A stretch of 20,000 nucleotides of DNA. Source: an uncultured virus (IMG/VR IMGVR_UViG_3300021185_003028) (taxonomy: Duplodnaviria; Heunggongvirae; Uroviricota; Caudoviricetes). Positions 3,588 through 20,000 of this stretch are shown piece by piece. Below the pieces are notes generated by a model that saw only the letters and a list, made by a program, of their open reading frames with translations, made no database searches and was not told the origin of the DNA. Numbering within the stretch: position 1 is the first letter of the stretch; each line of letters opens with the position of its first letter. The position numbers and the translations under genes were made by a program. The stretch lies in IMG/VR virus record IMGVR_UViG_3300021185_003028; one strand, given 5' to 3'.

Positions 3588-4574
3588 CTATATAAGCGTG
3601 ATGGTTCGGATGAAGCATTTGACTGCGAGAATATCGTCTTGGGCCACGCTTGCGATTTTGAGTGCTTCGCCCAAGCCCATCAGGACGCCTGCTTGCATTT
3701 TGAGAGGCATGTCTTCGTCGGTGGTCACGAGGTCATAGATGGCATCGAGAATCTCAACGCCTGACATGCCCCTTGCACCGAGCGCATCAATCTCCTTATC
3801 GACTTCACGCATCAGCCTCATGTCGTTCTTGGTCAGAGCCTTGAACGCCCTCGATAGCAAACGCTTCGCCCTGTTCGGCTGAACCGTCACCACGAACTCT
3901 TCAACATCGGCGAGTTCGACTTCACCTGCAACACGAGTCAAAGTCCAAAGCAAGTTCAGAGCCTTTCGCATCGAGCCACGAGAAGTCCTCATCAGCAAGT
4001 CCAACGCCTCGTCGGTTAATGCTGTCGATAGGGCAAGGAGAGCGGGTCTCATCTCATCAGGGTGAATCGGAGTAAATCGAGTCGATGCAAATGCACATCG
4101 GTCTTTGATGGGGTCAATCAATTTTTGAGGATAGTTCGCACTGAGAATGAATCGAGTCTGTGGGTATCGCTCCATCATCCTTCGTAGTGCGGCCTGTGCT
4201 TCGGGTGTGAGGTTGTCACACTCGTCAAGGAACACCACATTGAATGGGATTGGTCGAGTCTTGCCATCGACTTCGTATGTGCCGATGACTCCACGAGAAG
4301 CGAACTCCTTGACCTTAGAACGGATGACTGAGATAGAGCGTTCGTCAGAAGCGTTCATCTCAAGCCAATTAGACGACCATGCGTCACCGAAGGCTGTCTT
4401 CATCAATGCGATAGCAGTCGAGGTCTTGCCTACGCCCTGCATACCTGCAAACAGTAGGTGAGGTATGTCCTCGCCCCTGTGGATGCCTTCGACCATTGCT
4501 TTGAGCCGAGAGATGATGTGAGTCTGTCCTACAACATCGTCAAGCGTCTCAGGTCTGTGCTGTTCAATCCACAT
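3588..4574 (-). CDS. rfcS: Replication factor C small subunit (clamp loader AAA+), 328 aa
   Basis: [17 protein letters not shown], Walker [18 protein letters not shown], Walker [20 protein letters not shown] (SRC motif), GSMRKALN. Start at ATG 4574 with GGTGA SD. Confidence 0.95.
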
Positions 4575-4599
4575 GATGCTATCACCTTGCCACACCTAC

Positions 4600-4708: not shown

Positions 4709-5200
4709 TCAGAAGGGGGACTTGCGCTTTGCGGCCATTGCGTCAGCACGCTCTTTTGCCTCTGCGGCTTTGAGAGCACGGATGGATGCCTTTTCCTCTT
4801 CCATCTCAAGGATTGCATCACGAACGATGATTGATGCGGCGACAATTTCACCGATGAGTGTGTCTTTGTTGTCATGGATTTCGACTTGCCAATCCATGCC
4901 ACGCTTGAAGAATGATACATCTTTGATGTTGCGGTCTTCGGTTGCGGTGATAACGCCACTGTCTTTGAGAATCTCAAGGCACTCGTCCTTAACCCAAACG
5001 CTTGCCGCTCCTCTTCGGTCGCCATACACTGATGCGATAACGAACTGTGATTCTTCTGATGGCTTGAGTGCAATGTACTTCACTGCACCTGCGCTTCGCT
5101 CGACTGCGACGAATCCACCTTTGGCGGTGAAGTCATCGACAATTTTTGCTTTGGTCAGTCTTTTCATCTCTTGTTTTCCGATTGAGTCTGTGTTGCTCAT
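4709..5200 (-). CDS. Hypothetical protein (163 aa) with C-terminal coiled coil
   Basis: Protein-like composition; upstream CATATAGGTG promoter motif at the usual spacing. Confidence 0.8.
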   Translation of the reverse strand: MSNTDSIGKQEMKRLTKAKIVDDFTAKGGFVAVERSAGAVKYIALKPSEESQFVIASVYGDRRGAASVWVKDECLEILKDSGVITATEDRNIKDVSFFKRGMDWQVEIHDNKDTLIGEIVAASIIVRDAILEMEEEKASIRALKAAEAKERADAMAAKRKSPF

Positions 5201-5730
5201 GATTCACTCATGGATACCACACCTATATGAAGGTTGTACTTATCGTTGAAATCTCCATTTGAGTATTTTTCACAACAGCCACGACATGATAATCGGCCAA
5301 CAGGGACAATATCACGCTCGAACTTTATGCCACAGGAGGGACACGACAAGACATATCGTGGCCGTCGGCGATTGAGCGTCCGAGCGAAGTCGTTTGACTC
5401 TGATTTGAAGAGATAGAATGACTGCCACCCCTCCTCAAGTTCAGTGAATTGAGGGCCGTGTCCTGCCTCAGAGCCGAGAAGGTAATGGCACATTTCATGG
5501 TGGAGTAGGCCCTTGAGCAAATGCCCACGACACTCTTTGAATGCGAGTGGGTGAAGTAGGATTGTTGGCCGTGACCCGTCGAATACGATTCGTGCTTGCA
5601 CCCTACGGTTATCGGCGTCGAGATACCCGAAGTCGAATGATGTTGGCAGTCCCAACGACCATCGTCGTTCAGAACATAAAGCATAGAATATGTGGTGCAG
5701 GTGAGTGGTGTGTGCGCTCGTTAGAGTCAT
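5197..5730 (-). CDS. SprT-like zinc metalloprotease with C-terminal zinc ribbon (177 aa)
   Basis: LLHHEMCHY (HExxH), GHGPQF, Y.LSCPSCG ... CRGC. Probable start ATG 5730; longer in-frame starts exist at 5916/5940. Confidence 0.85.
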   Translation of the reverse strand: MTLTSAHTTHLHHIFYALCSERRWSLGLPTSFDFGYLDADNRRVQARIVFDGSRPTILLHPLAFKECRGHLLKGLLHHEMCHYLLGSEAGHGPQFTELEEGWQSFYLFKSESNDFARTLNRRRPRYVLSCPSCGIKFERDIVPVGRLSCRGCCEKYSNGDFNDKYNLHIGVVSMSES

Positions 5731-5732
5731 TG

Positions 5733-5897
5733 TCAATCCTTCTTGCAGGGGTACATTCCATTGGGGTGTGTCCGTATCAGAATCTCGTTTCCTCGACGGA
5801 ACATGACGAACTCCTGTGCAGGATTCACCAACATGAGCGTTTGAAGTAGTCTCCCTAATTCGGTAGGGTCGCCGAGCATCTCGACAGTCTTCTCCAC
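5733..5897 (-). CDS. Possible small hypothetical protein (54 aa, GTG start)
   Basis: Frame reads VEKTVEMLGDPTELGRLLQTLMLVNPAQEFVMFRRGNEILIRTHPNGMYPCKKD and stops 2 nt before the SprT ATG. Confidence 0.4.
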   Translation of the reverse strand: MEKTVEMLGDPTELGRLLQTLMLVNPAQEFVMFRRGNEILIRTHPNGMYPCKKD

Positions 5898-5940
5898 ATA
5901 CAGACGAGTGCAACATACGGTATAAGACCTCTTCGCCCAC

Positions 5941-6760: not shown

Positions 6761-7555
6761 TCAGAATCGGCGGGTGCTCGGCACTTCTTCCCATGTGGTC
6801 GTATGTGCCTTCTTGGTGCTCCACATGCGGCCGTACTTGGCGCATCCCTTGACGCTCGTGCGGTTGCTCTCTCGTGCGGCTTCGATAGCCTGTGGATAGA
6901 GGGCGTGGGCCATACCGAGGACGCCTCTCCATGCCTGTCGCTCGTGTGGCATCATGAGGTAGCCGTTGTAATTCTTGCGAGGGGACTGCTTAACGAGGGT
7001 CTCGACTCGGTCGCCTGCTTGGTGGGTGATTGGCTTTTCTTGGAGGAGGGAGCGAGCACCTTGACAGCGGCGGCTCAGTTCGTAGGAGCGGGTCAGGTTG
7101 AAGGAGGATTGCCAAACGGTGCGGCGACCCTCACGGACGACCTCGCCCATGAGAATGTCGTGTTGCATCTGTGCGAAGTGGATGACCTCGTGCATGAGGG
7201 TCTTGATGAGGTCGCCCTCGTCTCGTGCGTTGGTCATCGAGCCGATGTTGAGCATAAGGGTCATTTGGGATTTGTCAGGGCGTCCCTCGTGTATTCCGTG
7301 AGTGTAGCCCATCGAGCCACGAGTAGGGCCTTGAGCACGGGTTAGAGTGACATTCAGAGCAACGCCGCTGAGGTCGAGGTCATGGCATAGGTGGGTGATG
7401 CTGTTGCCGATGACATTGGCGACGAAGGTCTTCATTGGAGTCTTGCCGACTGTCTTGGTGAATGTGATGGTTGGCAGGTCTCCGACGCTGTCGAATACGA
7501 TGAGTCGGGACACGGGGTCTCGTCGGGCTTGGTATGGTTGGGGGTTGTTCGCCAT
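6761..7555 (-). CDS. Zincin-like metallopeptidase domain protein (264 aa)
   Basis: TLMHEVIHFAQ (HExxH) and downstream Y..MPHERQAW third-ligand motif. Leaderless ATG 7555 lies 24 nt after a TTTATA box. Confidence 0.8.
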   Translation of the reverse strand: MANNPQPYQARRDPVSRLIVFDSVGDLPTITFTKTVGKTPMKTFVANVIGNSITHLCHDLDLSGVALNVTLTRAQGPTRGSMGYTHGIHEGRPDKSQMTLMLNIGSMTNARDEGDLIKTLMHEVIHFAQMQHDILMGEVVREGRRTVWQSSFNLTRSYELSRRCQGARSLLQEKPITHQAGDRVETLVKQSPRKNYNGYLMMPHERQAWRGVLGMAHALYPQAIEAARESNRTSVKGCAKYGRMWSTKKAHTTTWEEVPSTRRF

Positions 7556-10756: not shown

Positions 10757-11038
10757 CTAAATCTTTCGTGCTTTGACGGTTGCGCCGTCGATTGAATAGG
10801 CCCACTTTTTCAGAGTGATGGAGGTCAATTGTCCTCGCTCCATGTGCAGGCGACCGCCCTCCTTATCGCCGATGATAGCCGAAGCCTCCCGACGGATTGA
10901 CGCAACGGCGACAGCCTCAGAGAGACGGAACAAAGCACAGTCCCGACGAAGTCTGACGACCTCAGCAATGCGGAAACGGTGCAGGCGTTTGGTCGCCTTG
11001 CGGCTCTCTCGGCGTTCGGCACGACTCAGGCGGCTCAT
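10757..11038 (-). CDS. Arg-rich basic hypothetical protein (93 aa)
   Basis: GGAGG SD upstream; MSRLSRAERRESRKATKRLHRFR. Confidence 0.65.
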   Translation of the reverse strand: MSRLSRAERRESRKATKRLHRFRIAEVVRLRRDCALFRLSEAVAVASIRREASAIIGDKEGGRLHMERGQLTSITLKKWAYSIDGATVKARKI

Positions 11039-11087
11039 ATTTCAGAGCCGCCCTCCCATGTTCTTGAGCGTGTCGGCTCAAGTCCAC

Positions 11088-11270
11088 TCAAATGCCTGCG
11101 GCTATGACTGCTTGGAGTTCTTTCTTTGCTTCGTCCCATGCTTTTTTGAGTTCGTCGCAGGTATCAGGGCAAGACCATTCGTAGGCTTCGCCTGCAATTC
11201 TTTCGGCTACTTCTGCTTCGTAGCGGGCTTCTGACCAGTCTTCATCGGGGGTGTCGGAGTGTTCGTCCAT
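11088..11270 (-). CDS. Acidic small protein (60 aa)
   Basis: ATG 11270 behind AAACCTTTATT..TAGGACTAAAC; 18 D/E versus 6 K/R. Confidence 0.75.
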   Translation of the reverse strand: MDEHSDTPDEDWSEARYEAEVAERIAGEAYEWSCPDTCDELKKAWDEAKKELQAVIAAGI

Positions 11271-11308
11271 GTTTAGTCCTAAAGGTCGGGGGGTAATAAA
11301 GGTTTTGC

Positions 11309-11554
11309 TCAAGCGAGTCTCTCCCATAGATTGAAGCAGGTGGTCAAGGTCACTTCATCAATGAAGGCGTCCTCTTCTTCTGATGGGGTTTCATCATATC
11401 GGGTGTTGAAGTCGAAGACCTCACGCTTGACAATGTCTCGCACATTGCTGTATTGGCGGTCGGGATTTCCCCATGAGTCCAAGAAGACTCTTGAGATTCG
11501 TCCTGAGATTTGTGGGCTTATTGGGCGGGGGGTTAGGCGGCTGTTTGTTCGCAT
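11309..11554 (-). CDS. Hypothetical early protein (81 aa)
   Basis: ATG 11554 behind a TTATATAGGGG promoter. Confidence 0.75.
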   Translation of the reverse strand: MRTNSRLTPRPISPQISGRISRVFLDSWGNPDRQYSNVRDIVKREVFDFNTRYDETPSEEEDAFIDEVTLTTCFNLWERLA

Positions 11555-11623
11555 GTATTTGATGGTAGGGTGTCCCCCTATATAAGCATGCCGCTCAAAG
11601 TAAATACGAAAGTATAGATTAGG

Positions 11624-11667
11624 AAAGACTATATACTGACAGCCCTGTGGTTCAAGTGGACGACGAC
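11624..11667 (+). repeat. Element E copy
   Basis: aaagactatatactgacagccctgtggttcaagtggacgacgac. Confidence 0.95.
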
Positions 11668-11723
11668 TAAACGCACCACTCCGAGCCTGTGGGCCGCCGC
11701 CCTCGTTCTGATGTTTGGGCGGC

Positions 11724-12005
11724 TCACTGGAAAATCCATTCAAAGCCTGCCTGCTGAATGTGAAAGCGGGTCAAGCCGTCGGGCATTTCTGTCTTGAAGA
11801 ATCGGCACGGCTCGCCCTCCATCTCGGCGCAGGTCGTGAAGTCGTCGAAGGTCTCGCCCTCGTCGAGCATATCGGAGACGATGACAGCGGCCAAAAAGTC
11901 GGCCTCTGAAATCTCGACACGGTGGGTCATCATGGTGTGCCAATCGGCTTCACCTTCGTCAGTGCGTCGGACTCGGTCGCATGTTCCTAAGAAGTGGCGG
12001 CTCAT
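11724..12005 (-). CDS. Acidic hypothetical early protein (93 aa)
   Basis: ATG 12005 behind GAAAGGTTTATA; ends QAGFEWIFQ. Confidence 0.75.
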   Translation of the reverse strand: MSRHFLGTCDRVRRTDEGEADWHTMMTHRVEISEADFLAAVIVSDMLDEGETFDDFTTCAEMEGEPCRFFKTEMPDGLTRFHIQQAGFEWIFQ

Positions 12006-12069
12006 ATCCCTCCCTGTGCATGGGGGGATATAAACCTTTCGGCCTATCAAACCTTTGAGATGAACACCA

Positions 12070-12099
12070 CCCTCGACGGCTTACAACGCCCGTCGAGGG
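12070..12099. terminator. Perfect 10-bp hairpin between cassettes
   Basis: ccctcgacgg...ccgtcgaggg downstream of the 12124-12372 stop. Confidence 0.55.
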
Positions 12100-12123
12100 C
12101 GACTCACTCGCCTGCTTCTTTAC

Positions 12124-12372
12124 TCATGCAAACATCGACGCCCACGCATTGACCATCTCACGGACATCAAACATGATGCACTCGGTTCGGCGGGTCATTG
12201 CGTGAAATAGGTCGGCTTGGTCTTCAAGGTCGAGCATCTGAGAAATTATTTGCTGTGCCTCGAATGAGTGAACATCAGCGACGGAAAGACGACCCATGAG
12301 GGAGCGTGCTTTGGTCGTGAGTTCAGATTGGCTAAAAATCGTGCGGGTGGGGGTTGGGCTTTCTTCGTCCAT
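12124..12372 (-). CDS. Hypothetical helical early protein (82 aa)
   Basis: ATG 12372; promoter nearly identical to that of 7783-8037 (TTTATATCCCCC..CACTACGGCAA.ACATGGACG). Confidence 0.75.
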   Translation of the reverse strand: MDEESPTPTRTIFSQSELTTKARSLMGRLSVADVHSFEAQQIISQMLDLEDQADLFHAMTRRTECIMFDVREMVNAWASMFA

Positions 12373-12536
12373 GTTTTGCCGTAGTGGTGGGGGGATATAA
12401 ACATATCGGTGTCCAAAACCTTTATATCCCGCCACCATGTAGGACACATGAGAGGGGAGGGGCGAGCGGCCTCCTGAATCGAGTTCACTTGGGGAGGGTG
12501 CGGGTGCTACTAAAGAATCAACGCACACGAAACGAA

Positions 12537-12561
12537 GTATCGGCTAAATGGTATCGGCTAA
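12537..12561 (+). repeat. GTATCGGCTAA direct repeat, 2 copies
   Basis: 12537-12547 and 12551-12561. Confidence 0.9.
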
Positions 12562-12613
12562 ATGTCACCCGCCCCCTGATGAGGCGGGTTCAGAATCAGC
12601 GGCTCGGCTCGGC

Positions 12614-12862
12614 TCAAGAAAGGTTGGCGAGTGCTCGGTTCAAGGTCTCGTGACGCCATACGACAAAACGAGCAACCAATAGGCGGTTTTGGTTGTATTC
12701 ACGAACCATCTCGCCTTCGGGGAATCCGAGCCAACCGTTTTTGGTATCATCAGAAAGAATCGCTCGTGCTTCGGTCAGGTCGATGTTGTTGAATCTCCCT
12801 GTTTCAATCAGTCGTTGTGCTTCGTTTGCGACCCATTGGGTCATGAATGTTGCTTCGTCCAT
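12614..12862 (-). CDS. Hypothetical early protein (82 aa)
   Basis: ATG 12862 behind AACCTTTATA..CTACGGCAATAC. Confidence 0.75.
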   Translation of the reverse strand: MDEATFMTQWVANEAQRLIETGRFNNIDLTEARAILSDDTKNGWLGFPEGEMVREYNQNRLLVARFVVWRHETLNRALANLS

Positions 12863-12905
12863 GTATTGCCGTAGGTGTAGTAGGATATAAAGGTTTCTAT
12901 AACCT

Positions 12906-12946
12906 AAATAAAAAAAGTGGACGAGCCGACCCCCATCGGCTCGCCC
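12906..12946 (-). terminator. Hairpin plus oligo-T terminator of the large ncRNA
   Basis: Minus strand GGGCGAGCCGA-TGGGGG-TCGGCTCGTCC-ACTTTTTTTATTT. Confidence 0.75.
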
Positions 12947-13528
12947 TGAGAAAGGGAGAACACGGCCCGTATTGGTCGTGGGTAGCGTGCTCAAGGTTCG
13001 AGCGGGGTTGATTTGGTTTCGGGAGTCGTTGGTTCGACGCCTGATTACTACGACCTTCCCCGTGCCTCCCGCACGGGTTTAGGTAGTCGAGTCACAGTGG
13101 TTCACGCATGCGGTGATTACTTGTGCTGTCATGTTTCATCTATTCAAATCAGAACCCCCGCTCTTGGAGGTTCGTCAGAATAAGAGAGGGCGTGGGTGTT
13201 TGGTGCGTTGCGCTGTGTTAGCCGCCTATTCCCGACCGAAGTCCATTTGATGCCACGAGGGCGGGTGCGTTCATACAGGGAGCGAAGGGGCAGGGCTTAT
13301 CACCGAGTCTTCTGACCTTAGCCACTTAGCACGATACTCAGTGCCTCCGAAGGATTTAGGTCGCCTCACCTTAACCCCCGCTAACTCCTTTGTTGCCGTT
13401 CCCCGTGTGCGGTTGGATGACCGACGGGTTAGGCTCAAGGTGTTGCGAGGAGGTGATTCTCTCTCATCTGTTAGCCCCACATGTCCCCATGTGGAGCGAC
13501 TGTCAAAGGCGGGTTTGACTCCGCCCTC
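12910..13528 (-). ncRNA. Putative large structured non-coding RNA (~620 nt), family unrecognised
   Basis: Early-type promoter (TTATATA 13550-13556 plus TAGGAC) with no ATG at the start position, no credible ORF, dense stems including long-range pairing and a UUCG tetraloop, and a terminator at the end. Confidence 0.7.
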
Positions 13529-13575
13529 AAATGTCCTACGGGTCTCGCCTATATAAGGCTTGTCCCGAAAGGTTC

Positions 13576-13687
13576 AGAGCGGCGGGTTCGTCGTCAGCCT
13601 ATTCACGAACCCACGCCCCTCGTAAAAGGTGCGCCTCCCGACTCGCCCCCAATTCAGGGGACAGGCTGTGGGTGGTAGTTCCGCTCT
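13576..13687 (-). ncRNA. Putative ~112-nt structured RNA with closing stem and pseudoknot
   Basis: Promoter TTTAAT..TAGGACTAATC followed by AGAGCGG in place of ATG. The 5' AGAGCGG pairs with the 3' CCGCTCT, and there is a 10-bp internal stem whose loop can pair with a 5' segment. Confidence 0.65.
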
Positions 13688-13741
13688 GATTAGTCCTATG
13701 GGCCACACCCTATTAAAGATTCCTATATGTTTCTATTAACG

Positions 13742-13783
13742 AAAGGTTTATAGGGTGACAGCCCTGTGTTCATATTGGACGAC
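13742..13783 (+). repeat. Degenerate element E copy
   Basis: aaaggtttatagggtgacagccctgtgttcatattggacgac. Confidence 0.75.
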
Positions 13784-13900
13784 TCCTCCTAAAGGGGTCA
13801 GGCCAAAGAAAAACGCCGCACGGCGTAACATCAGAGAAGGGCGGGCGACCACTATCAGCCCGAATGTGGCCGCCCTAAGAGTCGAAGGCTGTGAGCCGTC

Positions 13901-14275
13901 TCACATGCACATGTAGGTTTCAGAAGGCATGCGGTATGCACGGTATCGGTTGCCTACGAGAGCACGCAGAGCCTGATAAGCGTCTGTGTGAATGTAGAAG
14001 CGGTCGAGGTGCTCGCAGATGTGAAAGTTAGCACAGCAGGCAATTGAGATGATGGTTGCTTCAATTGCTCTCTTGCCCTCGTCAGTCCACTTTGCAGGCA
14101 GTAGCGAAGACCATGAGTTCTCGCAAGCGGCGGCGATAGCCATGCGGTGCGTAGCGTGGTTGATGAGTTCAAAGTTCTCCATGAACACCTCAGTAGTGCG
14201 AGGATTCATTTTGGCCTCAAGCACGATTTCAAGGTATTGTTCTTTTGTCAGCGGGTGTGTCGGTCTGTCCGTCAT
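13901..14275 (-). CDS. Hypothetical early protein (124 aa)
   Basis: Promoter AAACCTTTAAG..TAGGACTAAAC-ATG. Confidence 0.8.
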   Translation of the reverse strand: MTDRPTHPLTKEQYLEIVLEAKMNPRTTEVFMENFELINHATHRMAIAAACENSWSSLLPAKWTDEGKRAIEATIISIACCANFHICEHLDRFYIHTDAYQALRALVGNRYRAYRMPSETYMCM

Positions 14276-14351
14276 GTTTAGTCCTATACGCTTTCCCTAC
14301 TTAAAGGTTTTGTATTATCGTTCTGACATGGGTCGGCTATTTTAGCCGCCC

Positions 14352-14389
14352 TCCACTTGAACGGTATGGCTGTCAGTATATAGTCTTTT
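14352..14389 (-). repeat. Element E copy, inverted
   Basis: Reverse complement aaaagactatatactgacagccataccgttcaagtgga. Confidence 0.9.
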
Positions 14390-14390
14390 C

Positions 14391-14580
14391 TATAATATAC
14401 TATTATAATAATAATATAATAATTAAAAGAATGAGAAGCACTATGACACACACACATGATAGAGAGAGAGAAGTGTGTGTGTGCTCAGGGGTATGCCGTC
14501 CGCATCATTGTTTATCGAAACCGATAGGCTACGCCCCTGAAATGGGGTGTTTAATTCAGGGGGACATTCAGGGTTTTTTC
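14391..14580. other. AT-rich tract plus hairpins; candidate replication origin
   Basis: 14391-14432 is almost pure A/T in a roughly 55% GC genome; (AC)5/(GT)5 stem 14446-14482; cccctgaa/ttcagggg inverted repeat 14534-14562. Confidence 0.45.
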
Positions 14581-14648
14581 ATATGAAGAATTGTCAAAAC
14601 CTATCGGCCTCTCGTACTTTCATGCGTCAAAAGTCTGAATCGTCCCCA

Positions 14649-14855
14649 TCATTGTTTGTAGCAATTCACGAAGTCACCTATAAACCAACGAGCCAATTGA
14701 GACCACGATTTGAAAGCAGGGAGGTACAGATTCCGATACCATTGGGCGTAACAGAACTGAGCCTCGTGCTCATCGTTCAGGCGTTGGTTCACCTGCTCTA
14801 TGGCTCTCTCGCTCGCCTCCATGACAACATCAAACGGGGTGAGTTCGTCGGTCAT
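14649..14855 (-). CDS. Hypothetical protein (68 aa)
   Basis: TGATG translational coupling to the upstream gene; GGTGA SD. Confidence 0.7.
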   Translation of the reverse strand: MTDELTPFDVVMEASERAIEQVNQRLNDEHEAQFCYAQWYRNLYLPAFKSWSQLARWFIGDFVNCYKQ

Positions 14856-15121
14856 CAGAAGTCACCTGCGAGCCAAGCCGCACGCTCCGCACGGTTGGCA
14901 CGGATGGACGCTCGCCACATTGCACAGCGGTCGTCAGCGTTGATGTATGCGACAGCGTCGGCGTGTGGTGTGCCTTGACAGACCATAGCCACGATTGCAC
15001 GAGCACGACCCTTGATGTGGGTCACAATGCAAGCGGTTGAGATGCCGCCTGAAAAACCGTCTGTGTATGCTCGACTTGCGGCGAGGCGTGCTCCGAGTGT
15101 TGGTCGTGTGTCTCCGTCCAT
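14855..15121 (-). CDS. Hypothetical early protein (88 aa)
   Basis: Promoter TTAATA..TTACGAGTAAC-ATG. Confidence 0.75.
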   Translation of the reverse strand: MDGDTRPTLGARLAASRAYTDGFSGGISTACIVTHIKGRARAIVAMVCQGTPHADAVAYINADDRCAMWRASIRANRAERAAWLAGDF

Positions 15122-15271
15122 GTTACTCGTAAGGGATGCCCCTTATTAAGACTATCGGTCTCCAAAACCTTTATATCCCCCTGACCCCTACGATTAACAT
15201 AGCCGACCTCAGCGGAGGACGGGAGAAGAGAAGGAATAAGCGGAGGCTTATTTCAAAATCCTATCAGAACG

Positions 15272-15296
15272 AAAAGACTATATACCCCCATCTCAT
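15272..15296 (+). repeat. Element E variant, 24/25 identical to a minus-strand sequence inside polB (697-721)
   Basis: aaaagactatatacccccatctcat versus aaaagactatatacccgcatctcat. Confidence 0.85.
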
Positions 15297-15337
15297 AGCA
15301 ACAACAAAGGCCGACCCACCCGACAGGCCGACAGTCA

Positions 15338-15378
15338 ATAAAAAAAGACCCACCCGCTCAGAGCGGGCAGGTCTTTCA
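15338..15378 (-). terminator. Hairpin plus oligo-T terminator
   Basis: Plus strand ataaaaaaagacccacccgctcagagcgggcaggtcttt. Confidence 0.65.
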
Positions 15379-15511
15379 CTGGGGGGGAGACGGCCTCACG
15401 CCGTCCGAGATTAGCGGGCCATTGCGGCCCTTGTTGCCGCCCATAGGGCGGCTGTATCATTTCCGTTTATCTTCTCACCTCCTTGCGTTGTTTTGTTCGT
15501 TCTCGTGTTGC

Positions 15512-15715
15512 TCAGACGGTCTTGACGACGACCTTTTGGTGGATGCTGTGCTTGCTTGGGGAGGAGACTCGCCAAGAGCCACAGTCCACGCACGAGAGGT
15601 CGAGGTTCTCGACGCCGAAGAGGTCGGTCTTGACCTCAAGGGTGAATGATGGGCAACCACATTCACAGGTGACGGTCTTGGTCGGGCTTCGGGGGGTTGT
15701 TGTCTTGTCTGACAT
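15512..15715 (-). CDS. Zinc-ribbon microprotein (67 aa)
   Basis: TCECGCPSF...LSCVDCG; own promoter TTATATAGGGGG..CTACGGTTAAAC-ATG. Confidence 0.8.
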   Translation of the reverse strand: MSDKTTTPRSPTKTVTCECGCPSFTLEVKTDLFGVENLDLSCVDCGSWRVSSPSKHSIHQKVVVKTV

Positions 15716-15766
15716 GTTTAACCGTAGGAGTCCCCCCTATATAAGCCTGCCTCTGAATGGTTTTGC

Positions 15767-16099
15767 TCAGTTATGAGCGGCACGGTGGCCCTCTTCGCTC
15801 CACTGCTCGTCTGTGAAGTCGTTCTCGGTGTCCTTGCTTGCACGGATGCACATAGCCATTGAGTACGACCCGAAGGGCATGAAATACTCGTTGCCGTCAC
15901 AGTCTGTATTGATGCGGCGGGCTACTGGTGCGTCGTCGCTGTTGCCGTGCGGGTGGTGAATCCATACCGTCTTTGATGTGCGGCGGACAATCTCGACGCT
16001 CACGATTGAATGATAATTCGAGGCGAAGCGGCCGTAGTATTCACGGCCAACGATGAAGGTTGAGGGGCGGGCTTCGGGGGTCTGAGTGTGTGCGCTCAT
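15767..16099 (-). CDS. Hypothetical early protein (110 aa), F.VG..Y family
   Basis: FIVGREYY...VEIVRRTSKTV...RRI...DGNEY...GSYS; promoter TTTAAT at the usual spacing to ATG 16099. Confidence 0.8.
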   Translation of the reverse strand: MSAHTQTPEARPSTFIVGREYYGRFASNYHSIVSVEIVRRTSKTVWIHHPHGNSDDAPVARRINTDCDGNEYFMPFGSYSMAMCIRASKDTENDFTDEQWSEEGHRAAHN

Positions 16100-17220: not shown

Positions 17221-17258
17221 ATCCACTTGAACGGTGACGCTGTCAGCCTATAAAGGTT
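17221..17258 (-). repeat. Element E copy, inverted
   Basis: Reverse complement aacctttataggctgacagcgtcaccgttcaagtggat. Confidence 0.85.
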
Positions 17259-17360: not shown

Positions 17361-17398
17361 AAACCTTTATAGGCTGTCAGCCCTATGTTCAACATGGG
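17361..17398 (+). repeat. Degenerate element E copy
   Basis: aaacctttataggctgtcagccctatgttcaacatggg. Confidence 0.75.
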
Positions 17399-19050: not shown

Positions 19051-20000
19051 TCATTGGATTAGACCGTACTGTTGAAGTAACATAATCAATTCGTCATAGG
19101 CATCAGCGAGATTCTGAATATCGACTTGACTGTTTCCTGTCAATTGAGGAGCGGTTGGGAATTGAGGAGGGGGAGGCAATTGAACGGTTTGCGCTCCGAA
19201 GAATCCAAGCGTCCCTGCGTCATTGCTCTCGATAACCCCACTTGCCTTGAAGTCCTTTTGAGCGAAGAACGAACCTGTCGTTCCCATTCCACCTCCGCCC
19301 GTCGGCCTCGTCAAATCCTCCAAGTCAATCTCCTCGATAGCCGCCATAGACACGGCCCAATTCACATAATTCCCGCTTCCCGTCGTGAAACCGAGGTACA
19401 CATCATGTTGCGCTATGTCGGCATTGGGAATCCATTGATTGAGCAGAGTCCACCCACTGCTCGTTTGCAGGCTGAACATTATGTGAGCGGTTATCCGATT
19501 GGTTGAATTGCTGATATAGACTTGAATAGCCGCTCCATCGTAGGTGTTGCCTTCTACGAGCCTGAACTTGGTGAACGGAACACCACTTCCATAGCCCGAT
19601 ACGGACAGTAGGTTGATTTGATTGCCACCGTCACGACCGTAGTGGTGGCCGACTTCAATTCGGCACGCACGGTGTCGCCCTGACGATGTATCAGCGAGGA
19701 AGAATTGACCCATTGCTCGTTGAGCATTGTTGAGGTCACGCCCCTTGACAAGTGCAAAAGTCCACCATCCAACGGAGAGGTTTGTTTGTTGGCTTGATAT
19801 GTCGTACACCTCAGTCGGCAGAGAGCCAGTCCCCGAAGAGCCAGTAGCACCTTGAGCACCAGTAGCACCAGTCGGGCCTTGAGGGCCGACAGGGCCTTGA
19901 GCACCATCCGCACCATCAGAACCATCCGCACCATCAGCCCCCGCAGGGCCAGTAGGGCCAGTAGGGCCTTGAGGGCCTTGAGGGCCGTGAGGGCCAGTAG
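19051..20000 (-). CDS. Collagen-repeat tail/head fibre protein, 5' end outside the window
   Basis: The frame of the 19051-19809 ORF stays open to the window end, with about 19 Gly-X-Y triplets ([24 protein letters not shown]...) followed by a beta-rich domain. Confidence 0.88.

Follow-up and report, generated by a model that had tools for sequence, protein, structure and literature searches.

The window analysed here is the whole 20,000-nucleotide (nt) stretch of DNA from an uncultured virus (IMG/VR record IMGVR_UViG_3300021185_003028), and the element in question is a 112-nt RNA encoded on its minus strand from 13687 to 13576, called the small RNA below. The element is very probably a real, transcribed and structured non-coding RNA of a new class. 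The best overall explanation, with a probability of about 0.5, is that it is a stable viral small RNA with closed ends, which is expressed from one conserved promoter in marine archaeal viruses and may act as a decoy or scaffold. The existence of a discrete species of ~112 nt is given slightly less than even odds. A protein-binding decoy or scaffold function, proposed by analogy, is tentative and given clearly less than even odds.

The promoter of the small RNA consists of the following features.

13721-13688, minus strand: small-RNA promoter overall, of the archaeal type with a transcription factor B recognition element (BRE) and a TATA box
13711..13721, minus strand: BRE/TATA-like element AATCTTTAATA, a one-mismatch copy of the AACCTTTA motif
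13688..13699, minus strand: promoter-proximal element ATAGGACTAATC, ending one base ahead of the predicted start

The octamer AACCTTTA, with at most one mismatch, occurs 27 times in the window against 9.08 ± 2.96 expected, and none of 200 shuffles reached 27. At five minus-strand sites (7582, 8063, 11297, 12888 and 14302), a motif of this type is followed by ATG after 25–26 nt. At 13714–13721 of the same strand, it is followed after 26 nt by AGAGCGG in place of ATG. Four copies of the sequence ATAGGACTAA, again with at most one mismatch, are present where 0.52 ± 0.70 would be expected, a count reached by none of 200 shuffles; each of them is on the minus strand. These copies sit directly before the start; three of the four end TAAAC-ATG, and the small-RNA copy ends TAATC-AGAGCGG. 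The earlier observation that this promoter ends in AGAGCGG and its sibling gene promoters in ATG is thus borne out. A T/A-rich box with an upstream purine-rich element, centred ~27 nt before a leaderless ATG, is the usual archaeal BRE/TATA layout. A bacterial −10/−35 reading of the sibling promoters would put the start past the ATG. Since the archaeal layout fits and the bacterial reading misplaces the start, A13687 is the predicted first base of the RNA, in agreement with the initial annotation; in the sibling genes the equivalent base is the A of the leaderless ATG. At the predicted 5' end the transcript has no start codon.

According to RNAfold, the RNA 13687–13576 has a minimum free energy of −51.9 kcal/mol, against −40.5 ± 3.83 kcal/mol for shuffled sequences (z −2.98; 0 of 200 as good). 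The predicted fold is a four-way junction with the following parts.

13576..13687, minus strand: 112-nt structured RNA domain, four-way junction (RNAfold)
13681..13687, minus strand: 5' strand of the closing stem, AGAGCGG, RNA nt 1–7 (RNAfold; identical in the homologue L036)
13576..13582, minus strand: 3' strand of the closing stem, CCGCUCU, RNA nt 106–112 (RNAfold; pairs with the 5' end in L036 too)
13634..13675, minus strand: arm 1, long, with internal loops and the tip CCCC-UGAAUU-GGGG (RNAfold)
13614..13633, minus strand: arm 2, a short hairpin CGC.CCUU / GAGG.GCG (RNAfold)
13584..13612, minus strand: arm 3, an 8-base-pair (bp) stem GGGUUCGU/ACGAACCC with the 13-nt loop GAAUAGGCUGACG (RNAfold, pair probability 0.998–0.999; 100% identical in L036)

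The pair probabilities of the closing stem are 0.73–1.0, and those of the sampled main arm pairs are about 0.99–1.0. When 230 nt were folded with the end left free, nt 1–7 again paired with nt 112–106. The initial annotation, whose quoted letters and pairings are all correctly placed on the minus strand, had reported an exact pairing of the first 7 nt (13681–13687) with the last 7 (13576–13582) and a CCCC-TGAATT-GGGG hairpin, and both are present. The proposed GCGCACCUU/GAGGGGCGU stem also exists, but it contains one A/G mismatch or bulge. The proposed 10-bp stem GUGGGUUCGU/ACGAACCCGC is found as well, but each of its outer pairs shares one nucleotide with a neighbouring helix, and RNAfold draws 8 bp.

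Homologues of this particular RNA were found only in the loci L035 and L036. L035 matches the window at 99.9% identity across 1951 nt; it represents the same strain and is not independent. A 42-mer of this RNA and a 17-mer of the arm-3 loop gave no match in the viral contigs. In L036 the flanks are about 94% identical to those of the window, the counterpart of the BRE/TATA element is AACCTTTAATA, and the RNA differs by seven substitutions and two insertions of 1 and 26 nt. Five of the seven substitutions are located in the 38 unpaired positions of the 112-nt RNA, and the other two are the top pairs of arm 2. Arm 2, with four changes at its tip, re-forms: CCUC pairs with GAGG around a new loop of 4 nt. 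The insertion of 26 nt falls exactly in the apical loop of arm 1, and the 1-nt insertion (C) lies with the substitution A52G at the base of arm 1, in the junction. Folded alone, the L036 RNA (139 nt, with a domain 27 nt longer) shows the same fold with the closing stem kept (z −3.03; 1 of 200 shuffles as good). This pattern is as expected of a structured RNA, and two sequences constitute modest evidence.

Similar units were searched for using the pattern ..TAGGACTAATC|AGAGC, which joins the promoter end to the start of the RNA. Viral contigs contain the pattern at 9 loci and metagenome contigs at 30, giving 59 instances with 29 distinct downstream sequences. A TATA-like element is located upstream of 23 of the 29, and the six sequences without it (U05, U07, U13, U21, U27 and U29) were set aside as chance matches. 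In the closure test, the 19 promoter-bearing units that have 150 nt or more of sequence downstream were folded blind over 230 nt, and a unit was counted as closed when at least four of nt 1–6 were paired with partners at most 120 nt away. Closure was detected in 13 of the 19 units versus none of the six chance matches, and the closed domains are 26, 34 and 82–117 nt in length. The partner tracks the 5' sequence past AGAGC: CGG pairs with CCG in the window, CAGAC with GUCUG in U22, CAGACAC with GUGUCUG in U17, CGAA with UUCG in U03, and CGACCCGACA with UGUCGGGCG in U02. In U16 and U14 the closing pairing reaches 15–18 bp. The small RNA of the window has the features of this class: a BRE/TATA element, ATAGGACTAATC ending one base before AGAGC, and a 5' end that closes at nt 112.

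Using the clamp loader of the window as a bait, three related viral contigs were obtained; the protein P0001 encoded upstream of the RNA locus and the 82-residue open reading frame (ORF) downstream gave no relative in the viral contigs. In locus L002, two units share this promoter, which ends TAATC, and start with AGAGC. The first is a 113-nt branched domain closed by AGAG.CAGACA/UGUCU.CUCU, and the second is an 84-nt rod closed by GAGCG.CCCGACA/UGUCGGG.CGCUC (z −5.71). The second L002 unit and U16 of L026 stand alone, being followed by T-runs or a hairpin and by no large RNA. A covariance model of the U01/U17/U22 subfamily (R1) contains 29 pairs, six of them with compensatory change.

In the window, the small RNA is followed by a second, larger RNA, which has the following features.

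13528..13575, minus strand: spacer with the large RNA's own promoter (TTATATA at 13556–13550), conserved in L036, L019 and L026
12996..13527, minus strand: large (~530-nt) structured RNA, found as RNA-library contigs in four of the four runs examined
12910..12946, minus strand: hairpin with a run of seven T (T7), the likely transcription end of the whole RNA locus, conserved in L036, L001, L019 and L026

The small RNA therefore lies directly upstream of the large RNA's own promoter, as had been noted earlier. With the same spacing from TATA to start, the large RNA would begin near 13527. Homologues of the large RNA were found in L036, L001, L019 and L026, and the one in L001 has its own promoter. 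According to RNAalifold analysis of a five-sequence alignment, the large RNA has 87 pairs, 31 of them with compensatory change; it has no Rfam match. A long-range helix (13000–13010 / 13156–13165, minus strand) closes its 3' domain. This helix is GAGCGGGG/CCCCGCUC in the window and L036 and becomes GCACGGGG/CCCCGUGC in L001, L019 and L026, a compensatory change at two positions. It has the same AGAGCGG/CCGCUC letters as the closing stem of the small RNA. When the small RNA and the 3' domain of its large neighbour were aligned globally, the score was 58 against 44.0 ± 6.7, with 8 of 300 shuffles as high; the similarity comes mostly from the ends and is suggestive only.

The slot before the large RNA differs among the loci. 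It holds the small RNA in the window and the small RNA with another unit in L036; in L019 and L026 it is filled by a different unit and about 290 nt of additional structured RNA, and in L001 it is empty. At another place, around 12598–12620, the window has 21 nt where L026 carries a promoter and the 110-nt unit U16, which is absent from the window. The slot before the large RNA is a variable cassette, which holds zero, one or more promoter-plus-RNA units. The initial annotation had described a two-RNA locus; two RNAs are indeed present here, but the description understates the variability of the slot. It had also suggested the small RNA as a partner of the large RNA. Contigs of two runs join both, but L019 and L026 carry a different unit and L001 none. 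Since the large RNA occurs with a different small RNA or with none, the two are not an obligate pair. Pairing of the two whole molecules, assessed by RNAduplex, was uninformative (21 of 200 shuffles as good). The large RNA contains an apparent pairing site, AGAGCGGGGGUUC, but this site is paired with the 3' end of the same RNA.

Part of the region 12850–13800 is contained in 24 sequencing runs from 21 studies, and 20 of the 24 are RNA libraries. Contigs of four runs (X1, X2, X3 and X6) were mapped on 11000–16000. Run X1 gave one contig covering 12996–13664 (depth 33.6, 0 differences), which ends at 12996 in the sequencing adapter, about 80 nt before the hairpin and T7. Run X2 gave contigs 12996–13349 (depth 212.5) and 13401–13517 (depth 232), run X3 gave 12999–13177 and 13176–13517, and run X6 gave 13401–13678 (depth 168.4). 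These RNA-library contigs stop 4 nt past the 3'-domain helix of the large RNA. Contig depth on the large RNA reaches 232, or 305 per bin. In X6, the sole run that also shows flanking genes, the flanking contigs 11011–11493 and 13836–14257 (same virus, 0 differences) have a depth of 2–3; the depth on the RNA locus is tens of times that of the flanks. The small-RNA region is present in RNA libraries far above the DNA carry-over of this virus. Positions 13679–13835 are uncovered in all four runs and 13518–13687 in X2 and X3, and these gaps were used neither for a start at 13687 nor against the small RNA. The contigs give no strand, ends or levels, so the orientation rests on the promoters and the terminator. 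For the claim of a compact, separately promoted ~112-nt RNA, the promoter, a fold beyond chance and the presence in RNA libraries stand, but the contigs run on into the large RNA.

Several points weigh against the explanation of the element as an end-closed small RNA with a decoy or scaffold role. Homologue covariation had been suggested as a check, and L036 keeps the terminal and loop pairings, but it is the only independent homologue, and full compensatory change on both sides is seen in none of its pairs. When the L036 RNA is folded within 230 nt, its 5' end pairs elsewhere and not with its own 3' end, probably due to competition by the second AGAGCGG unit that follows. The closing stem alone is unremarkable, as a helix of at least 7 bp arises from 15.6% of the internal anchor positions in these structured RNAs. 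The count of perfect helices anchored at nt 1–2 is a poor test, which overlooks bulged stems and has a null that is itself structured; the homologue and the paralogues lend the closing stem additional weight. Within the class, 6 of the 19 promoter-bearing units are unclosed at the 5' end. The covariance model of U01/U17/U22 detected only its own four copies (E below 1e-19) and no further members, and it missed the small RNA of the window at E up to 10. Thus, the class is defined by promoter, start sequence and architecture, not by interior homology. The small-RNA region is joined to the large RNA in the X1 and X6 contigs and may never be a separate molecule. The decoy function is argued from analogy only.

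The main rival explanation, rather unlikely in our estimate, is that the element is not a separate RNA but an optional 5' domain of a long large-RNA isoform started at the distal promoter, acting only in cis on folding, stability or assembly. It agrees with the absence of a T-run between 13576 and the large RNA, which fits read-through, and with the X1 and X6 contigs, which continue unbroken from the large RNA into the small-RNA region as far as 13664 and 13678. In L002, the 113-nt AGAGC domain is followed by ~230 nt more of structured RNA with no promoter between them, and AGAGCGG/CCGCUC recurs in the large RNA, where it closes the 3' domain. However, a contig that spans two features is no proof of one transcript, and the conserved promoter of the large RNA is retained between the two RNAs. 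The homologous large RNA of L001 functions with no small RNA in front, and those of L019 and L026 function behind a different unit; in other places, units of this kind stand alone.

The explanation as a separate, end-closed small RNA suggests the following course. The host RNA polymerase would start at A13687, and the terminal helix would hide both ends from exonucleases, so that the RNA accumulates, as general RNA biology suggests. Part of the transcripts would run through the next promoter into the ~530-nt large RNA, because no T-run terminator follows the small RNA. The 112-nt unit would then be either freed by trimming or used as the 5' domain of the long isoform. The small RNA may act in trans as a stable protein-binding decoy or scaffold of a conserved-promoter regulon, probably an early one for host takeover or anti-defence, with the variable interior as the recognised part. 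Three observations suggest this role in an early takeover or anti-defence programme: the promoter is strong and shared, the units turn over like cassettes, and their interiors vary. In other archaeal viruses, a conserved strong promoter is common to early anti-defence genes according to the available part of PMC11065993, and this is a further reason for the proposal. A more speculative extension, which we consider improbable, is that these viruses carry hypervariable RNA-gene cassettes, each with a near-identical strong promoter and an AGAGC-initiated, end-closed RNA of ~80–120 nt, which are gained, lost, duplicated and exchanged between strains beside the abundant ~530-nt RNA and serve as decoys for counter-defence or host takeover. 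If so, they would correspond, at the RNA level, to the protein-based anti-defence islands known from other viruses, and would be among the most highly expressed viral products in surface-ocean metatranscriptomes.

The initial annotation had proposed an 8-bp pseudoknot between the following strands.

13661..13668, minus strand: proposed pseudoknot strand CAGCCUGU, nt 20–27 (putative; overlaps arm 1 pairs of the nested fold)
13595..13602, minus strand: proposed pseudoknot strand AUAGGCUG, nt 86–93, in the arm 3 loop (putative)

The complement of CAGCCUGU (13668–13661) and AUAGGCUG (13602–13595) exists, with 8 bp including one G-U, but it has neither statistical nor comparative support. The duplex energy of −12.6 kcal/mol is within chance, being equalled in 87 of 1000 trials with shuffled loops and in 49 of 1000 with shuffled bodies (5–9% of shuffles). 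Forming the pseudoknot opens part of arm 1; the rest (−44.0 kcal/mol) and the helix (−10.8 kcal/mol) sum to −54.8 kcal/mol against −51.9 kcal/mol for the nested fold, with the pseudoknot penalty excluded. Both strands are invariant in L036, the sole independent homologue, and hence show no covariation. The pseudoknot is possible but unsupported. It could alternatively be read as a sign of a packaging RNA (pRNA)-like, self-associating RNA, in which the arm 3 loop would pair with CAGCCUGU, located on a second copy or on the same molecule, to give a dimer or ring. In favour of this reading, the 8-bp complement is present, and its two strands are conserved at 100% in L036, where other loops changed. 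With two and three loop nucleotides left over, the full 8 bp should form more easily between molecules, on our assumption about pseudoknot geometry. Loop complements of 5 and 6 bp can also be drawn in U01 and U17. However, their p values are 0.074 (U01) and 0.456 (U17), and the remaining AGAGC units examined have no comparable loop pairing. The chance level of the duplex and the need to break arm 1 pairs also argue against self-association, as do the lack of an Rfam match and a virus that has an RNA-primed-type family B DNA polymerase (PolB) and a clamp loader, not a phi29-like system. Self-association is accordingly held to be quite improbable.

A transfer RNA (tRNA)-like or ribozyme identity, which the initial annotation had suggested together with a check by Rfam and a tRNA finder, was not supported by these searches. 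ARAGORN detected no tRNA or transfer-messenger RNA (tmRNA) gene in the window or in 13 related loci. Against 4227 Rfam families, nothing reached the gathering scores in the window, and the 13 related loci were likewise blank. At E up to 10 over 12700–13900, the only matches were of the terminator hairpin 12910–12947 to EBER2 (E 0.35) and a small nucleolar RNA (E 7.6), both irrelevant; no tRNA or tmRNA family appeared, nor any ribozyme model such as hammerhead, twister, HDV-like, pistol or hatchet. The small RNA resembles a tRNA or viral tRNA-like structure superficially, as it has a 7-bp end helix, three further arms as in a cloverleaf and a similar size range, and its GGGUUCG is similar to the start of a T arm. 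Unit U16 (L026 2861–2970), with a 15-bp closing stem, has the hairpins CGGG-UUCAACC-CCCG and CGGG-UUCAACA-CCCG, which we take to fit the tRNA T-loop consensus. In contrast, the small RNA is not recognised by ARAGORN or the Rfam tRNA model, and it departs from a tRNA in the lengths of its arms, in its linkers and loops, and in its 3' tail. The stem is followed by 5 nt, the first arm measures 42 nt, the loop of the last arm is 13 nt long, and the tail is GAAC and not of the CCA type. Its linkers are 5, 0, 1 and 1 nt, and it differs from what we take as the tRNA consensus in arm sizes, linkers, the 7-nt T loop and the discriminator with a CCA-type tail. A tRNA-like decoy or self-cleaving ribozyme is therefore very improbable. 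Archaeal C/D-box small RNAs have a C box RUGAUGA near the 5' end and a D box CUGA near the 3' end. In the 112 nt there is no UGAUGA, and CUGA occurs only across the 3' end (CUCUGA).

Two further alternatives are given hardly any probability. The first is a small protein from a same-strand ORF at 13574–13708 (44 residues, GTG start). This frame is open in the window and in L036 (53 residues), where the two insertions sum to 27 nt and so keep the frame end. However, the GTG lies 21 nt ahead of the predicted start, within the promoter, and no start codon is present at the transcript 5' end. The 1-nt and 26-nt insertions shift the frame across seven codons, other substitutions alter residues (RRTFYEGRG versus GRTSHEGRG) with no sign of purifying selection, and the AGAGC units have no common frame; the first L002 unit, for example, stops after 22 codons. 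The second is a DNA-level element, in which the inverted repeats would serve as a site for regulator binding or recombination or as one similar to a miniature inverted-repeat transposable element (MITE), with the fold as a by-product. The closing stems are terminal inverted repeats at the DNA level, and units come and go as cassettes, like the promoter and 110 nt in L026 against 21 nt in the window. Against this, the block gained or lost takes in the promoter, so the inverted repeats do not bound it. A second copy of the unit is absent from the window, the interiors differ among units, unlike copies of one MITE, and the region is abundant in RNA libraries. As for antisense targets, no complement of at least 12 nt was found elsewhere in the window. 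A supposed likeness of GACGAACCC to haloarchaeal CRISPR repeats was dropped; no CRISPR-repeat family is among the Rfam matches at E up to 10, and the host is marine.

The genes of the window, which lie mostly on the minus strand, include the following.

1-2529: PolB, called from protein family matches
3588-4595: clamp loader, from a match to the PHROG clamp-loader family
19051-19998: collagen-repeat tail fibre

The best matches of PolB are haloarchaeal tailed viruses; HVTV-1 shows 24.6% identity over 89% of the query (E 3e-47; 217 records matched of 50,697 phage and virus records). The clamp loader is of the archaeal type. Its relatives carry the name replication factor C small subunit and are located on marine contigs of up to ~88 kb, and its nearest named cellular relative among those listed is archaeal (43% identity). 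As judged from its genes, the window belongs to a marine tailed virus of archaea, because the clamp loader is of the archaeal type, PolB is nearest to haloarchaeal tailed viruses, the genes are leaderless in the archaeal manner, and the relatives and the later-found loci, which bear marine sample names, are marine. The gene content resembles that of viruses of Marine Group II archaea as described in the available part of PMC5434244; this is a likeness only and does not imply membership of that group. By blastn, 12800–14300 had no match among the phage records. In cellular genomes, the promoter-plus-AGAGC pattern gave three matches, one of which (L046) was judged a chance occurrence within coding sequence and the other two are bacterial by title; they offer no clue to the host.

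Among known systems, phi29-type pRNA has several likenesses to the small RNA: a virus-encoded RNA of ~120 nt with its own strong promoter, a terminal helix of the 5' and 3' ends, a multi-helix junction, possible loop-loop complementarity, and little sequence conservation among relatives with the architecture kept. In contrast, the small RNA has a four-way and not a three-way junction, a loop pairing without statistical support and no match in Rfam, which presumably contains the phi29-type pRNA family. The virus is here archaeal, with an RNA-primed-type PolB and a clamp loader in place of the protein-primed replication of phi29-like viruses, and there are several different units per genome. Adenovirus virus-associated (VA) RNAs and the Epstein-Barr virus-encoded RNAs (EBERs) are abundant, have their own promoters, end-joining terminal stems and branched interiors, and bind host proteins. 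The small RNA would be similar to them as an abundant small viral non-coding RNA with its own promoter, terminal stem and branched interior. However, those RNAs belong to eukaryotic viruses and RNA polymerase III, and no sequence or model similarity was found, the sole EBER2 match being that of the terminator hairpin. The large phage-borne RNAs GOLLD and ROOL, which are encoded beside tRNA genes, also combine a large, highly structured viral RNA with small structured RNAs in one locus, whereas neither RNA of the window matches Rfam, the small neighbours here are not tRNAs and the host is archaeal. The early and anti-defence regulons of archaeal viruses, as far as described in the available part of PMC11065993, resemble the present class as short, fast-evolving accessory units under one strongly conserved promoter. 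They differ in being protein genes of Sulfolobales viruses, whereas some units here are RNAs, for which an anti-defence role is proposed by analogy. In the literature searched, no non-coding RNA family was found described for tailed viruses of marine planktonic archaea, and the available parts of PMC5434244 and PMC11706807, both on these viruses, mention neither promoters nor non-coding RNAs.

By means of the shared promoter, all members of the class can be gathered from ocean metagenomes with a simple sequence pattern. This is also the first promoter model made explicit for these uncultivated viruses and, inferentially, for the hosts. As decoys or anti-defence RNAs, the units would add an RNA side to the archaeal virus–host conflict; as assembly or replication RNAs, they would be new for archaeal viruses. 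Under either reading, the function is now testable with synthetic transcripts.

Upstream of the RNA locus, P0001 (13901–14275, minus strand) encodes 124 residues with the invariant ends MTDRP.. and ..PSETY(M/L)CM. It occupies the same position in nine further loci (eight distinct contigs) and has only 10 related clusters, with no Pfam or PHROG family. Its AlphaFold model is an all-helical bundle (predicted local distance difference test score, pLDDT, 82.4), for which Foldseek found nothing in the PDB at E 0.001 or better. Two neighbouring genes at 5197–5940 and 6761–7555 (minus strand) show weak SprT-like matches (E 2e-4 and 5e-3), both under the Pfam cut-off, and the promoter of the latter, TAGGACTAAAC-ATG, is of the type that drives the small RNA. 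In the large RNA, 13455–13465 (minus strand) contains AUCACCUCCU, which we take to match, letter for letter, the conserved 3' end of 16S ribosomal RNA. Relatives keep only CCUCC or CCUCU, and the similarity may be due to chance.

A second promoter type, TTTATAGG(C/G)TG(A/T)CAGCC, consists of a TATA box followed by the palindrome AGGCTGnCAGCC. It occurs at 13741–13760 (plus strand), 17242–17258 (minus strand), 17362–17385 (plus strand) and about 14355–14375, and many times in L001 and other loci. It is often located back to back with the first type and may bind a dimeric regulator. A 10-mer, ATAGGCTGAC, shared with the promoter at 17242–17251 is within chance, as about four such 10-mers are expected. 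At about 14385–14485, adjoining the RNA locus, ~40 nt of almost pure A/T (ctataatatactattataataataatataataattaaaag) are followed by an inverted repeat, formed by CACACACACA and GTGTGTGTGTG with 16 nt between them; a replication origin or an unwinding element may lie here. Just past the RNA-locus terminators (TTTAGCCGATAC..), the motif (A/C)(C/T)CGATACTTT is repeated two or three times, at about 4085–4115 in L001, 2915–2975 in L002, 2995–3017 in L026 and 12552–12575 in the window.

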